Assembly: GCA_027483505.1 (NCBI GenBank)
Contig: JAIXUP010000062.1
Location: 64,724-128,723, forward strand
DNA length: 64,000 bases
DNA from: Hyphomicrobiales bacterium
Lineage (GTDB): Bacteria > Pseudomonadota > Alphaproteobacteria > Rhizobiales > Beijerinckiaceae
Reading direction: 5' to 3'
The notes under the pieces were generated by a model that saw only the letters and a program-made list of their open reading frames with translations, did not search any database and was not told where the DNA came from. The translations under genes were made by a program, and so were the position numbers. Below are positions 3,012 to 9,131 of the stretch, in pieces (within the stretch, counting starts at the first letter, position 1; every line of letters begins with the position of its first letter).

Positions 3012-3704
3012 ATGCCGCGCCTCCTCCATGCCCCGTTCTGCCCGCACTCACGATTCATCCGTCTCGTCATGGGCGAGATGGGCATGGAGGCGGAGCTGGC
3101 GGAGGAACGCGCCTGGGAGCGGCGGCCCGAATTCCTGAGCCTCAATCCGGCTGGAACGACGCCCGTCCTGATCGAGGAAGGCACGCTGGTGGTGCCCACC
3201 GCCGATGTCATTTCCGAATACCTCGACGAGACGCGGGGGCTCGCGCTCGGCGAACGCCGGCTTCTGCCCGACCCGCCAGCAGAGCGCGTCGAAGTGCGCC
3301 GGCTGACCAACTGGTTCAACCACAAGTTCTTCGACGAGGTCTCCGGGCCGCTGACGCTGGAAAAGATCAACAAGCGCTTCATGCGCAATGACGAAGGCGG
3401 CGGACCGCCTGACACAGTCTCGATCCGGGCCGCGCGCAACAATGTGCGTTACCATCTGCAGTATATCGGCTGGCTGACCGCACGGCGGAACTGGCTTGCG
3501 GGACCCAACATGTCCTATGCTGATCTTGCTGCCGCAGCCCATCTGTCCTGCGTGGACTATCTCGGCGACGCGGCCTGGGATGAGAGCGAAGGCGCGCGCG
3601 CATGGTACGCGAAGATGAAGTCCCGCCCGAGCTTCCGCCCGCTGCTCGCCGACCGCGTGGCCGGGATGGCGCCCTCGGCGACCTACGACAACCTCGACTT
3701 TTGA
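3012..3704 (+). CDS. fzlA: Glutathione S-transferase family protein, FzlA (FtsZ-binding)-like
   Basis: GST N-terminal [15 protein letters not shown] and [10 protein letters not shown]; C-terminal [16 protein letters not shown] and [10 protein letters not shown]; uppP-GST-queG context. Confidence 0.7.
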
Positions 3705-4828
3705 CGCCGGCAGCCCTGAAGCAGGCGGTTCTGGCGCGGGCGGAGGCGGAAGGCTTCGACATCGCGCGCGTGACCACGCCTTCGGCTGTTCCGGATGCCG
3801 CCGGCCGGCTCAGGCAATGGCTCGATGCCTCGCACCACGGGACGATGGACTGGATGGCCGACCGGGCCGACTGGCGCGGCGACCCAGCCAGGCTCTGGCC
3901 GGAGGCGCGCTCGGTGATCATGCTTGGCCTGTCCTACGCGCCGCCGCACGACCCGCTGGCGGTCCTCGCGGAGCCCGCGAAAGCCGCATTGTCGGTCTAT
4001 GCAGCCCGGCGGGACTATCACGATGTGATCAAGGGCAAGCTCAAGACAGTGGCCGGAGCGCTGGCCGCCAGCAATGCTGCCATCAAGGTCTTCGTCGACA
4101 CCGCGCCAGTGATGGAGAAGGCGCTGGCCGAGGCCGCGGGGCTCGGCTGGCAGGGCAAGCACACAGTGCTGGTGTCGCGCGAGCATGGCTCCTGGCTGTT
4201 CCTGGGCGCGATCTTCACCAGCGCCGAGCTGCCGGCGGATGAAGCCGGAATTGACCATTGCGGCCGCTGCACGCGCTGTCTCGACATCTGCCCGACCAAG
4301 GCCTTCCCGGAGCCTTATGTGCTCGATGCGCGGCGCTGCATCGCCTATCTGACCATCGAGCATGCGGGCCATATCGACCGTGACCTGCGCCCCGGCATCG
4401 GCAACAGGGTTTTCGGCTGCGATGACTGCCTCGCAGTCTGTCCGTGGAACAAGTTCGCTGGCGCCGCCCGCGAATCACGGCTGGCCCTTCGGGAGGACCT
4501 TCTCGGGATGCCGCTGTCCGCCCTCGCGGCGCTCGATGATGCATCCTTCCGCAGGCTGTTCGCGGGGACGCCGGTCAAGCGGACGGGGCGGGATCGTTTC
4601 GTGCGCAACGTCCTGATCGCCATCGGCAACTCGGGCGCAGCCGAACTGGGCGACGTCGCGCAAGCCCGGCTTGACGACGCCTCGCCATTGGTGCGCGCCA
4701 TGGCGGTCTGGGCGCTGGCGCGGCTGGCGCCAGGGCGCGCGCGTGAGCTCGCCGCCGGATTGGTGCACGCGGAGACCGATGCCGCTGTGCAGGCGGAGTG
4801 GCGCACCGTGCTGGACGGTGCGGCATGA
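3701..4828 (+). CDS. queG: Epoxyqueuosine reductase
   Basis: [13 protein letters not shown] and [23 protein letters not shown] Fe-S motifs. TTG start overlapping upstream stop. Confidence 0.92.
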
Positions 4829-5706
4829 GGCTCGTCGTTCTCGGCATGGGTTATTCGGCGGCGCAATTCGTGGCGCAGGGGCGCGCGCGCTTCGCCAGTG
4901 TCAGCGTCACGGTGCGCAGCGCGGAGAAGGCCTCCCGCCTGCGGGCCGGCGGCTTCGAGGCCTTCGTCCTGTCCGGACAGATGGTTGACCCTGCGCTGGA
5001 GACCGCGATCCGGGATGCAGACGCGCTGCTGGTCTCCATTCCAGCGGAAGATGGCGGGGACCCTGCCCTGCCGGTGCTCGGCGAGGTGATCCGGACAGCG
5101 CCGCGCCTTGGCTGGATTGGCTATCTCTCCACTGTCGGCGTCTACGGTGATCATCAGGGCGCGCTGGTCGACGAGACCTCCGCCTTGCGGGCAACCTCGG
5201 AGCGTGGGCTCAGGCGGATCGCGGCCGAAATGGGCTGGCTCGATCTCGGCGTGGCCTCCGGCAAGGCCGTCCAGGTTTTCCGGCTCGCGGGGATCTACGG
5301 GCCGGGACGCAACCAGCTTGTCTCGGTCGCGGACGGATCGGCGCGGCGGATCATCAAGGCCGGCCAGAAATTCAGCCGCATCCATGTCGAGGACATCGCC
5401 GGGGCCTGTCTCGCCTCGCTCGACAGGCCCGATCCGGGCGCCGTCTACAATGTGGCCGACAATGAACCGGCGCCGCCGCAGGACGTGATCGCCTTCGCGG
5501 CCGGGCTGCTCGGCCTTCCGGCGCCACGCGAGGAGCCGTTCGACAGCGCGACGCTCTCGCCCATGGCGCGCTCCTTCTACATGGACAGCCGCCAGATCTC
5601 GAATGCGAAGCTGCGGACGCGGCTGGGCTATGTGATGCGCTATCCGACCTACCGCGAAGGCCTCGCTGCCCTGTTCCGGGCGGGCGAAGGCCAACGAAGC
5701 CGTTAG
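4825..5706 (+). CDS. Atypical SDR / NAD-dependent epimerase-dehydratase family protein
   Basis: LGMGYSA Rossmann start, [30 protein letters not shown]. Confidence 0.85.
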
Positions 5707-5723: not shown

Positions 5724-6368
5724 CTATTTCGTGCCGAACATCCTGTCGCCGGCGTCGCCGAGCCCCGGCACGATGTAGCCGTGATCGTTGAGATGGCTAT
5801 CGATGGACGCGGTCCAGATGCGGACCTCCGGATGTGCGTCGCGCATCTTGGCGATACCCTCCGGGGCCGCGAGCAGGCACACGAAGCGCAGGTCTTTCGC
5901 GCCGCGCTCCTTGAGGCGGTCGACGGCCGCGATGGCGGAGTTGGCGGTGGCCAGCATCGGGTCCATCACGATGACCATCCGGTCGGCGATGTCGGAGGGA
6001 GCCTTGAAGTAGTATTCGACGGCCTGCAGCGTCTCGGGATCGCGGTACAGGCCGATATGGGCCACGCGGGCTGCCGGCACCATCTCGAGCATGCCATCGA
6101 GGAAGCCGACGCCGGCGCGCAGGATCGGGGCGAAGACCAGCTTCTTGCCGGCGATGATCGGGGCCTGCATCTTCTGGAGCGGCGTCTCGATTTCGGTCAT
6201 CGTGATCGGCAGATCGCGGGTGACCTCGTAGCACAGCAGCATGCCGATTTCGTTGAGCAACTGCCGGAAGCTCTTGGTCGAGCGCTCCTTGTCGCGCATC
6301 AGGGTGAGCTTGTGCTGCACCAGCGGATGATCGACGACCGTGACGCCGGGGTCTTTCTGACTTGCCAT
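5724..6368 (-). CDS. upp: Uracil phosphoribosyltransferase
   Basis: [25 protein letters not shown] (PRPP motif), [17 protein letters not shown]. Confidence 0.96.
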
Positions 6369-6391
6369 GCTCGCATTCCCTTCCAAGACTC

Positions 6392-7630
6392 TCAGAATAC
6401 CGTTCCGTCGCTGATGATGGCCAGCGGCGGGCCGCCATCCGCACGCTTTTCTTTCGCGATCCGCCGCCCTGCCGCCCAGGTGCCGCCTTCGAGCACCTTG
6501 GCGAGCGGCAGTTCGTCCGCGCTCAGCCCGAGCCGCGCGCGCATCTTCGCAGCAATGATGTCGAGCAGCGCCACGGTCAGCGCGCGCCACTCGACGACGA
6601 GTGCGGACGACACGTCATGCCTGCGCGTCCAGTCAGCCGGGTCCTTCAGGGACAGCACGCCGAAATCGAGCAGCAGGCCGCCGTTGCGGTACTCGGGAAG
6701 ACCGGTGAGGCCATCAATGTCGCGGACATCGTGACCGGCCCATTGCAGCGGCTCGATCAGCGAGTAGGTCAGCCATTGCGACAGTTTGTGGAAAGGTACC
6801 GCGCTGCCATGCCCCGGGAGCGGCATGCCGTGCGGATGAAACCACGTATCGCCGCAGCCGGGGACGGCGCCGGCGCGCTCGGGCCAGATGCCGCTGAATT
6901 CCTTCAGAACCTCCACCAGCATCATCGACGCCAGCAGCGGATTGCCTGACTCCAGCGTTTCGAGGAACAGGTCTGCAAGGATCGAGGGCCGCTGATTGCC
7001 GGGCTGGTCGGCATGGCGGTCGGCCAGTTCCTCGCCAAGCCGGTGCAGCAGCGCGGTCCGCCCTTCAAGGCCGACCAGCGGATTGTCTGCTCCGACCTGG
7101 AAGCCGCGGCGCAGGTCGCCGACCGAGAGTCGCTGCAGCCGTTCGGCATCGACCCTGAGCGGTTCGCCCGGATGAGCCGAAAACAGGCCCTCCCGGAACA
7201 TGGTGAAGGAGGCCAGCCCGAGCCCCTCGGACTTGCTGGCTTCGACGCGCGTGATCGGCTCGACAAAGCGCCAGCCCATCCCGGCCCCTGCATCCAGCAG
7301 CACGCTGACAATCACAAGGTCATAGGCGGCCTTGACGCGCGCCCGCTGCGACGTCCAGGCCGTCGCCTTGTCGAGTTCCGCCCACAGATCGCGGCCGCCG
7401 GCGCGGAAATGCCGCCAGCGCGCGTGAAACGGGATCTCGCCTGTCGGATAGTTCGCGCGCGTCGTCTCGATGACGTAGTCGACCACCGCATCGAGGCGGC
7501 TCTCGTCGAGCGACAGATGGGCCAGTTCGCCGGCGCGGGCATGGTCGAGCAGCTTGCGGGCGGCCATGCGCACCGCTCCGCTGTTCATGAGGCGCTGGTT
7601 CAGGCCATGATGGCTGAGAATGCCGGACAT
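6392..7630 (-). CDS. URC4/Urg3 family (DUF1688) protein
   Basis: [66 protein letters not shown]; located between URC1-like gene and upp. Confidence 0.85.
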
Positions 7631-7633
7631 CGC

Positions 7634-8893
7634 TCAGAACTTGTCCAGCCCGCGGCCGACCGTGGCCTTCAGCGCATTGTCGCCGGGCGCGCCCTCGGGC
7701 GCATAGTAGCCGGCGGCCTTCTTGGCCTCCATCTCGACCGAGGCATCCTGCGGGATCAATTCGGGCGGGATCGGCACACGTTCGCCGATCTCGATGCCGG
7801 ACTGGACCATGGCGTCGTACTTCATGTTGGACATCGACATCAGCCGGTCGATCTTCGTCACGCCGAGCCAGTGCAGGATATCCGGCATGAGCTGCTGAAA
7901 GCGGGCATCCTGCACGCCGGCCACGCATTCGGTGCGCTCGAAATAGGTGGCGGCGCTATCTCCGCCCTCCTGCCGCTTGCGGGCGTTGTAGACGAGGAAT
8001 TTCGTGACCTCGCCGAGCGCCCTGCCCTCCTTGCGGTTGTAGACGATAAGGCCGACGCCGCCGCGCTGGGCTTCGATGGTGGCTTCCTCGATGCCATGGG
8101 TGAGATAAGGCCGGCAGGTGCAGATGTCGGAGCCGAACACATCCGAGCCGTTGCATTCGTCATGAACGCGGCAGGCGAGCCGCTTCTTCGGATTGGCGAG
8201 ATCGGCCACGTCGCCGATCACATAGGCCGTCATCGAGCCGATCGGCGGCAGGAAGACCTTCATGTCCGGCCGCGTCACCAGTTCGGTGAACATGCCGCCC
8301 GTCTGCTCGAACAGGGTGCGGCGCAACTCGTTCTCGCTCGTGCCGAAACGCTCGGCGACGCCCGGCAGCCACCAGACCGAATCGACCGCGATCTTGGTGA
8401 CCGAGATGTCGCCGGAGGCATGCAGGATGCGGCCATCAGGCGCGAGCCTGCGGGCGGCCATGGCGGCCGTGATCTCGGGCAGGTTCAGCCGCGCCTTCGT
8501 CACGGCAATGGTCGGGCGGATGTCGACGCCCTCGGCGATCTCGCGGGAAAAGTCGCGCGCCACGCGGTGGCCCCATGGATCGAGCGAGACGATCTTGCCG
8601 GGCGTCGACCATTGCGGATAGGGCCCGATCTCGGCAGTCGGGTAGGTGTTGGTGAGGTCAGGCCGGGCCGACGGGTTCATGGCGCGGGCAGAGACCGCCA
8701 GTGCCCGATAGAGCGAATAGGCGCCGCCATAGGCGCCGATCACGTTGCGGTCGAGCGGCGTCGTCGTCGCCCCCACAACGGGACCGCGCTCCTCGATCGT
8801 GGCGGCGTCCCACTTCACCGGAAAGCGCGAGGTCGCCGTGCCCGGTTCAGGGTGGGAGGTGAGGCGGATATGAGTGGACCGGTTGGCGGTCAT
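7634..8893 (-). CDS. GTP cyclohydrolase II-like protein with long N-terminal domain (URC1/Urg1 family)
   Basis: RVHDECNGSDVFGSDICTC Zn-binding motif, EGRALGE, SMSNMKYDA; ~250 aa N-terminal extension not found in canonical RibA. Confidence 0.85.
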   Translation of the reverse strand: MTANRSTHIRLTSHPEPGTATSRFPVKWDAATIEERGPVVGATTTPLDRNVIGAYGGAYSLYRALAVSARAMNPSARPDLTNTYPTAEIGPYPQWSTPGKIVSLDPWGHRVARDFSREIAEGVDIRPTIAVTKARLNLPEITAAMAARRLAPDGRILHASGDISVTKIAVDSVWWLPGVAERFGTSENELRRTLFEQTGGMFTELVTRPDMKVFLPPIGSMTAYVIGDVADLANPKKRLACRVHDECNGSDVFGSDICTCRPYLTHGIEEATIEAQRGGVGLIVYNRKEGRALGEVTKFLVYNARKRQEGGDSAATYFERTECVAGVQDARFQQLMPDILHWLGVTKIDRLMSMSNMKYDAMVQSGIEIGERVPIPPELIPQDASVEMEAKKAAGYYAPEGAPGDNALKATVGRGLDKF

Positions 8894-9131
8894 CACGGGG
8901 CTCCAAAACAAATGTGGCTCCGGACGCAAGAGGCCGGAGCCGTTCGATCAGGTATCGCAGCGCCTGACGACCGTAAGTTGGCGCGGCGGAAGCCTGACGT
9001 CAACGCCGGCGCGCCGCCATCACGGGCAGCGCCCTCGGAATCGCGCAAAAATGCCGCGATCCCACACCCAGAGGCCCGGAAGATGCCAGTGGTCTCTCGA
9101 CGGCGCCCATTGTCGGGCTTAAACAGGCGTC

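Follow-up and report, generated by a model that had tools for sequence, protein, structure and literature searches.

How does a bacterium that has turned uracil into a nucleotide take that nucleotide apart again, and which protein would carry out the step that sets urea free? These questions are raised by three adjacent genes in a 64,000-nt stretch of contig JAIXUP010000062.1 from a Hyphomicrobiales bacterium (hereafter the window; all positions are those within this stretch). The genes encode, in order, a URC1-like relative of guanosine 5'-triphosphate (GTP) cyclohydrolase II, here called UrcA, a protein of the DUF1688 family, and the uracil phosphoribosyltransferase Upp. An earlier note on this DNA had proposed that they form a bacterial URC1-URC4-upp cluster, and all the core members of the uracil catabolism (URC) pathway, namely URC1, URC4 and URC6, are indeed found here in linked form. 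Judged from the family assignments and the comparative data reviewed below, the trio is very probably a bacterial URC operon for uracil catabolism. We further propose, with distinctly more reserve, that the DUF1688 protein is an N-glycosidase whose closest relative of known function is the queuosine-salvage enzyme Qng1.

Gene content and the parallel with yeast

All three open reading frames lie on the minus strand, with gaps of 3 nt and 23 nt between them, exactly as expected from the earlier description of three tightly packed, co-directional genes (Table 1), and a GGAG sequence stands 7 nt upstream of the urcA ATG. Profile searches place each product in its family and bear out both the two-domain build proposed for the first protein and the DUF1688 assignment of the second. 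UrcA matches Pfam GTP_CH_N (PF12471) in its N-terminal part (E = 6e-77) and GTP_cyclohydro2 (PF00925) in its C-terminal part (E = 2e-17), and it scores 733 bits against NCBIfam NF005536, for which the cut-off is 403. The DUF1688 protein matches PF07958 over its whole length (1.5e-130), and Upp is recognized by the uracil phosphoribosyltransferase (UPRTase) model of Pfam (3e-75), by TIGR01091 (278 bits; cut-off 208) and by NF001097 (302 bits). Independent gene calls in two close metagenomic relatives give proteins of 419/412/214 and 419/412/213 amino acids. When Upp was used in a tblastn search of the whole genome, the upp gene of the trio proved to be the sole UPRTase locus.

The same three families make up the URC system of Lachancea (Saccharomyces) kluyveri and the urg1-urg2-urg3 set of Schizosaccharomyces pombe, and in S. 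pombe the genes are clustered, like the trio of the window. The yeast homologues are both clustered and uracil-induced (PMC2174524). Yeasts cannot break uracil down to urea and 3-hydroxypropionate without these homologues (PMC3869809), and the same kinds of end product, urea plus a C3 acid, are expected here. Unlike the yeast genes, however, the window trio is a bacterial operon with presumed translational coupling. In addition, the yeast urea amidolyase URC3,5, which belongs to the fungal pathway and not to the conserved core, has no counterpart here, its place probably being taken by urease (see below), and neither a gene for the fungal URC2 regulator nor one for the URC8 reductase is linked to the window operon. 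Uracil catabolism by way of the nucleotide is, in all likelihood, the best reading of the trio, which is an ordinary copy of a bacterial URC operon that has already been described.

The first enzyme and its substrate

UrcA was reportedly described in 2021, by Zhang et al. in ACS Catal, as a cyclohydrolase that acts on uridine 5'-triphosphate (UTP), not on uridine 5'-monophosphate (UMP). The window protein aligns over its full length (E 4e-174) with PDB entries 7EJ3 and 7EEV, which we take to be the UrcA structures of Zhang et al.; the PDB itself names them only 'GTP cyclohydrolase II'. Identity amounts to 64% (265 of 412 columns), the two-domain build is common to both proteins, and the zinc-site motif, RVHDECNGSDVFGSDICTCRPYLTH, is identical. 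The characterized protein is the enzyme of another organism; activity is known for this homologue, and the window protein is a predicted UTP cyclohydrolase. The two-step hydrolysis of UTP by UrcA is described in PMC9499338, and PMC12507026 gives Zhang et al., ACS Catal 2021;11:8895 as a reference for the URC pathway.

These reports alter two claims of the earlier note. The note had the cyclohydrolase opening the ring of UMP, and this has to be revised, considering that the substrate reported for bacterial UrcA in PMC9499338 is UTP. A UTP substrate implies, in turn, additional steps catalyzed by UMP kinase and nucleoside-diphosphate kinase. The note had also held that the bacterial chemistry is not established. 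This no longer applies to the first step, for which there is a 64%-identical protein with solved structures, but it does apply, as far as the searchable literature goes, to the DUF1688 reaction.

How does UrcA differ from the enzyme of riboflavin synthesis? It shares a homologous C-terminal domain with RibA of Escherichia coli (PDB 2BZ0; E 4e-10), but it has an additional N-terminal domain of 200 residues and its substrate-side motifs are changed. In the alignment with 2BZ0, the zinc cysteines C247, C258 and C260 are kept, as are Y302 and R331, the equivalents of Tyr105 and Arg128. The motifs that had been picked out earlier are all in place (RVHDEC occupies residues 242-247, C-T-C 258-260 and KEGRALG 288-294), and the differences from RibA are plain: HDECNGSD in UrcA corresponds to HSECLTGD, and EGRALG to EGRNIG. 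Moreover, UrcA falls below the cut-offs of both RibA models, scoring 52 bits with TIGR00505 (cut-off 206) and 62 bits with NF001591 (cut-off 148). In RibA, Tyr105 and Arg128 serve the release of pyrophosphate. Because UrcA retains this Tyr and Arg, a 5'-monophosphate is a plausible product, and the ribosylurea nucleotide that leaves the enzyme is probably in that form.

The genome as a whole (3.9 Mb, 99.9% complete, with the window on contig C42) contains three GTP_cyclohydro2 matches: the URC1-like gene of the window and one gene each on contigs C81 and C16. The C81 gene encodes a canonical RibA of 405 amino acids, with a long N-terminal extension and the motifs HSACLTGD, CDCG and QEGRGNG. 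The C16 gene (L002, 1483-2820, minus strand) is a RibB-RibA fusion in which the cyclohydrolase domain lacks the zinc cysteines. The fusion probably functions only as a 3,4-dihydroxy-2-butanone 4-phosphate (DHBP) synthase, with the C81 protein as the active RibA. The earlier note had raised the matter of a separate canonical ribA; with the C81 gene there is one, and the URC1-like gene is not the only RibA-type gene of the organism.

Conservation of the gene trio

How widely is this arrangement kept? We scanned one genome per species with a family alignment built from 42 diverse DUF1688 proteins. At least 595 stretches encoding relatives came to light, and the 80 best loci were retained for neighborhood counts by tblastn. 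These 80 include loci from Bosea, Microvirga, Bradyrhizobium, Kaistia, Methylobacterium, Phenylobacterium, Legionella, Rubrivivax, a Solibacteraceae genome and many cyanobacteria. In 75 of the 80, DUF1688 is preceded on its own strand by a urcA-like gene, which is its direct neighbor in nearly all cases, and four of the five exceptions are on short contigs or contig ends. At one locus, from an Enterovirga metagenome-assembled genome (L030), a urcA match is absent despite 10 kb of upstream sequence. The upp gene is close downstream of DUF1688 in about 66 of the 80 loci and divergent upstream in three more. The order of the trio is kept in most of the loci, in Alphaproteobacteria, Legionella, Cyanobacteria and Acidobacteriota, and no other neighbor recurs in more than 10 of the 80.

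At closer range, six genomes of the window's own family share the trio but not its flanks. The whole neighborhood is kept in the two close metagenomic relatives (L106 and L108, with DUF1688 identities of 92% and 78%, respectively). Across the phylum the distribution is patchy, with DUF1688 in 21 of 401 sampled genomes (about 5%). NCBI names the bacterial DUF1688 proteins 'URC4/urg3 family protein', and Andersen et al. are said to have noted the linkage to upp in bacteria in 2008. The conservation of URC1 and URC4 in many bacteria goes back to the same 2008 report, as quoted in PMC3869809. The cluster is thus already known and is not a new discovery.

Some of the relatives show features of their own. 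In one genome of the same family (L091; G088:C7, 5553-6642), all that is left of urcA is a C-terminal piece (residues 292-415, 51% identity), and an unrelated 240-aa open reading frame lies between this remnant and deoB, while DUF1688 and upp are intact. In a genome of the same genus (L090; G220:C18), the DUF1688 protein is 58% identical to that of the window, compared to 81% for UrcA and 86% for Upp; by this comparison, DUF1688 is diverging much faster than its two partners. Finally, some of the loci L010, L015 and L024 (Microvirga) and L019 and L040 (Bradyrhizobium) have deoB, thymidine phosphorylase, a cytosine-deaminase-like amidohydrolase, or a hydantoinase and a carbamoylase-like gene nearby, which hints at larger pyrimidine-nucleoside catabolic islands around some of the trios.

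DUF1688 as a probable relative of Qng1

What does the product of the middle gene do? We found no reaction assigned to DUF1688/URC4 in the searchable literature, in which the yeast work describes URC4 only genetically, as the ribosylurea-degrading step. PDB sequence searches, both with the DUF1688 protein and with the family profile, returned no relative and did not reach Qng1, so that the link to Qng1 emerged only from a fold search and from profile-profile comparison. An AlphaFold2 model of the DUF1688 protein, based on the 42-sequence alignment, has a predicted local distance difference test score (pLDDT) of 94 and a predicted template modeling score (pTM) of 0.93. A Foldseek search of the PDB with this model gave 11 significant matches, every one of them to Qng1/DUF2419 (from Sphaerobacter and human) and at a probability of 1.0. 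The Qng1 matches, among them 7U07, 7U5A, 7U91, 7UK3 and 7UGK, have E values of 2e-9 to 4e-8 and target-normalized template modeling (TM) scores of 0.69-0.76, and the next match in the search has an E value of 0.7. DNA glycosylases gave no significant direct match in the Foldseek search of the PDB, the best being TAG with an E value of about 3. The two-lobe fold of Qng1 is recovered in the model.

The profile comparisons lead in the same direction. The Q_salvage profile (PF10343) weakly matches 27 of the 42 DUF1688 family members, with a best E value of 7e-8. For the window protein the match has an E value of 0.052 and 13.5 bits, which is below the gathering cut-off of 25 and so marks a sister family and not a member of Q_salvage. 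A search for PF10343 in 401 genomes from the phylum to which the window belongs found none, and nine Qng1 genes were taken from Acidobacteriota for the comparison. When the DUF1688 and Qng1 profiles were aligned with hhalign, the probability was 96.8% and the E value 2.1e-10 over 280 aligned columns. The alignment pairs FHK(282)LSQW with FHKLAQL, LTGLPE(313)Y(314) with MTAFADY, and E347-x-R349-A350 with ExRA. In our own column reading of the hhalign output, D113 falls on an invariant Asn of the Qng1 set. Together, the fold and the profiles support homology between DUF1688 and Qng1.

Qng1 is a helix-hairpin-helix enzyme that converts queuosine-5'-monophosphate to queuine and ribose-5-phosphate. 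In its active site, K199 holds the ribose, D231 and the Tyr that follows are found at C1', N72 acts as the general acid, and the carboxylate of the protein's own last residue, Y323, is used as well (PMC9881137). We infer that K282, E313-Y314 and D113 of the window protein correspond to K199, D231-Y232 and N72 of StQng1, the equivalence between the acidobacterial and StQng1 residues being drawn from their invariance and from their spacing (in each set, 32 residues separate the Lys from the Asp). Among 264 DUF1688 family members, K282 is conserved in 260, E313 in 261 (with Asp in the other 3), Y314 in 262 and D113 in 263. The last residue is Phe in 260 of these proteins, 222 of which end in GTVF, and this terminal Phe mirrors the conserved aromatic residue (Tyr) at the end of Qng1, an enzyme that is inactivated by tagging at its C-terminus. 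The DUF1688 model and the description of Qng1 have further landmarks in common, namely a beta-hairpin just before the Lys and a strand that follows the acid by 13 residues.

The two families nonetheless differ in several respects. Sequence identity is 16-19%, DUF1688 has about 90 extra residues, and it has Glu for the catalytic Asp, which is a conservative replacement, and Asp for the general-acid Asn. The genomic partners of DUF1688 are urcA and upp, and its presumed leaving group is urea, not queuine. Is urea a reasonable leaving group for an enzyme of this kind? Endonuclease III-type glycosylases excise urea residues from DNA, and because these relatives remove urea, its removal from C1' would be within the range of the superfamily. 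The fold that the helix-hairpin-helix DNA glycosylases have in common with DUF1688 is shared by way of Qng1 (PMC9881137); these enzymes act on DNA, whereas the proposed DUF1688 substrate is a free nucleotide. On the strength of the fold, the profile homology and the conserved residues, cleavage of a ribosylurea nucleotide is the activity suggested for DUF1688. In particular, we incline, by no great degree, to the model in which DUF1688 is a sister family of Qng1 that would hydrolyze 5-phosphoribosylurea to urea and ribose-5-phosphate, using a Lys / Glu-Tyr / Asp site closed by the protein's own C-terminal carboxylate.

A proposed route from uracil to urea

The steps can be arranged into a candidate pathway. 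Upp would convert uracil and phosphoribosyl pyrophosphate (PRPP) to UMP; the protein is assigned here to its family, whose reaction is well established. UMP would then be raised to UTP by a UMP kinase and a nucleoside-diphosphate kinase from elsewhere in the genome. UrcA is a zinc enzyme of GTP cyclohydrolase II descent and is predicted, from its likeness to the characterized homologue, to open the uracil ring of UTP by two successive hydrolyses, yielding a C3 fragment, most likely malonate semialdehyde, along with the ribosylurea nucleotide. DUF1688/URC4, as a putative Qng1-like helix-hairpin-helix N-glycosidase, would cleave ribosylurea-5'-phosphate to urea and ribose-5-phosphate. In the active site, the ribose would be held by K282 and C1' stabilized or attacked by E313, with D113 as the proton donor to the departing urea and the terminal carboxylate of F412 shutting the pocket. 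Finally, urease and MmsA, both encoded elsewhere and tentatively joined to the pathway, would convert urea to ammonia and malonate semialdehyde to acetyl-CoA, respectively.

The genome contains candidates for these last two steps. The earlier note had found no urea amidolyase gene in the operon, and this holds beyond the operon as well: no urea carboxylase scores above the cut-off anywhere in the genome, while the urease alpha subunit is present (732 bits) and is the likely substitute for urea amidolyase. The urease alpha coding sequence is split over two contig ends (G000:C72:1-1269, covering profile positions 2-418, and G000:C52:25839-26318, covering 410-568), most likely by a break in the assembly and not because the gene is broken. 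MmsA is likewise present (661 bits) and probably serves to dispose of the C3 fragment.

Weighing the alternatives

Several observations weigh against a dedicated uracil-degrading operon with an N-glycosidase at its center. With respect to the glycosidase, DUF1688 has a Glu where both Qng1 and the DNA glycosylases have Asp, the hhalign alignment stops short of the C-terminal 45 residues, and the tail of the model is less confident (pLDDT 83, then 55). With respect to the pathway, an NCS2 uracil permease was not found in the genome, and a survey of neighbors and flanks revealed no transporter or regulator linked to the operon. As upp is the only UPRTase gene, plain salvage, too, depends on part of the operon. 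The rut and pyd routes, which the earlier note had raised as possible competitors, fare differently from one another: RutA was not found in the genome, whereas three genes of the hydantoinase/dihydropyrimidinase family are present, and a reductive pyrimidine route may coexist with the URC operon.

Could the same chemistry serve another end? The operon might function mainly in pyrimidine-nucleotide homeostasis or detoxification, removing excess UTP or damaged or analogue pyrimidine nucleotides, and not in nitrogen nutrition. Expression of upp is needed for salvage in any case, and the missing permease would be consistent with such a role, as would the housekeeping nature of the neighbors and the lack of any linked transporter, regulator, riboswitch or nitrogen-type promoter. 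In addition, deletion of urg1 in S. pombe causes no growth defect, with or without uracil (PMC2174524). However, L. kluyveri depends on its homologues when uracil is the nitrogen source for growth (PMC3869809), the genome of the window has urease and MmsA to use both products, and in other bacteria the trio stands beside deoB, thymidine phosphorylase and cytosine-deaminase-like genes, which point to nucleoside catabolism. We therefore regard homeostasis as an unlikely main purpose and prefer uracil catabolism. A different objection is aimed at the middle gene: DUF1688 might act on some other intermediate, such as a ureidoacrylate-type nucleotide, or be a binding or chaperone partner of UrcA, or even a queuosine-type salvage enzyme. 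The replacement of the catalytic Asp of helix-hairpin-helix glycosylases by Glu would fit with one or another of these roles, as would the extra residues, the many Arg and His that are invariant in the family, and a queG gene two genes away, and a complex with UrcA would be in keeping with translational coupling over so short a gap (3 nt). Yet the genes to which DUF1688 stays linked across phyla are urcA and upp and not tgt or the que genes, and the queG neighbor is kept only in the closest relatives and not in genomes of the same family. Moreover, the queuine-reading residues of Qng1 are not those conserved in DUF1688, and yeast urc4 is described as the ribosylurea-degrading step.

Considering these points, a different role for DUF1688 appears quite improbable, and ribosylurea-phosphate N-glycosidase remains the favored assignment. 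It is harder still to argue that the first gene is an ordinary riboflavin GTP cyclohydrolase II that clusters with upp by accident. The names of NF005536 and of the PDB entries ('GTP cyclohydrolase II') and the retention of the zinc cysteines, Tyr and Arg of RibA could be cited in favor of this idea. They are set against scores far below the TIGR00505 and NF001591 cut-offs, altered zinc-site and loop motifs (HDECNGSD, EGRALG), the canonical RibA encoded on C81, linkage to DUF1688 and upp in 75 of the 80 loci, and a literature in which UTP is the substrate (PMC9499338). An ordinary RibA would be very surprising indeed, and we retain the identification of the gene as urcA.

Flanking genes and the leader region

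The genes on either side of the operon are of the housekeeping type: HIT and NudC genes diverge from it upstream, and an epimerase-like gene and QueG converge on it from downstream. The queG gene (epoxyqueuosine reductase; 3602-4828, plus strand) lies two genes from DUF1688. A functional link between queG and the Qng1-like protein was considered and rejected as probably coincidental, the neighborhood being kept in L106 but absent in the six genomes of the same family. The gene between queG and upp is a 302-aa open reading frame (4798-5706, plus strand) that converges on upp, with the two stop codons 17 nt apart; it has no Pfam match at 1e-5, and its L106 counterpart has only a faint Epimerase match.

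No riboswitch or other leader RNA was detected by Rfam, either in the whole window at gathering thresholds or in the urcA leader at E values up to 1. A sigma-70 promoter and terminator scan gave nothing relevant near the operon, and no sigma-54 element of the form GG-N10-GC was seen when the urcA leader was read by eye. The leader does contain a GC-rich hairpin (8916-8941, minus strand), which reads GGCTCCGG...CCGGAGCC, followed by ACATTTGTTTT. The hairpin is identical in L106 (the 92% relative) and partly compensated in L108 (the 78% relative). An attenuator is possible, but because the fold z-score is only -1.14 we do not claim one.

Table 1. Positions of the operon genes, selected codons and the upstream region within the window
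Feature	Position	Strand	Basis
urcA (URC1/urg1 homologue), predicted UTP cyclohydrolase, 419 aa	7634..8893	-	ATG 8893, stop 7634; Pfam, NCBIfam and PDB 7EJ3/7EEV match
DUF1688 gene (URC4/urg3 homologue), 412 aa, proposed Qng1-like N-glycosidase	6392..7630	-	ATG 7630, stop 6392; PF07958, AlphaFold, Foldseek, hhalign
upp (URC6/urg2 homologue), uracil phosphoribosyltransferase, 214 aa	5724..6368	-	ATG 6368, stop 5724; TIGR01091, NF001097
UrcA predicted zinc-binding Cys codons (C247, C258, C260)	8114..8155	-	aligned with E. coli RibA C54, C65, C67 (PDB 2BZ0)
DUF1688 K282	6785..6787	-	aligned with invariant Lys of the Qng1 set (hhalign)
DUF1688 E313-Y314	6689..6694	-	aligned with invariant Asp-Tyr of the Qng1 set (hhalign)
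DUF1688 D113	7292..7294	-	placed at an Asn that is invariant among the Qng1 proteins; own reading of the hhalign columns
DUF1688 F412, conserved last residue	6395..6397	-	family conservation; analogy with the Qng1 C-terminal carboxylate
Divergent intergenic region between urcA and the HIT-family gene	8894..9131	.	Rfam and promoter scans empty; leader hairpin 8916-8941 (-)

Significance

The operon itself adds a further bacterial case to a pathway that has been known since 2008, the first enzyme of which is said to have been characterized and crystallized in 2021. The main interest lies in the middle gene, considering that Pfam still lists DUF1688 as a family of unknown function and that the family is also present in many fungi. 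If DUF1688 is indeed an N-glycosidase of the proposed kind, the last step of the URC pathway still lacking an enzyme would be accounted for in both bacteria and fungi, and the fourth known route of pyrimidine degradation would be complete. The fold shared by Qng1 and the DNA glycosylases would then have been recruited for the scavenging of nitrogen from nucleotides.

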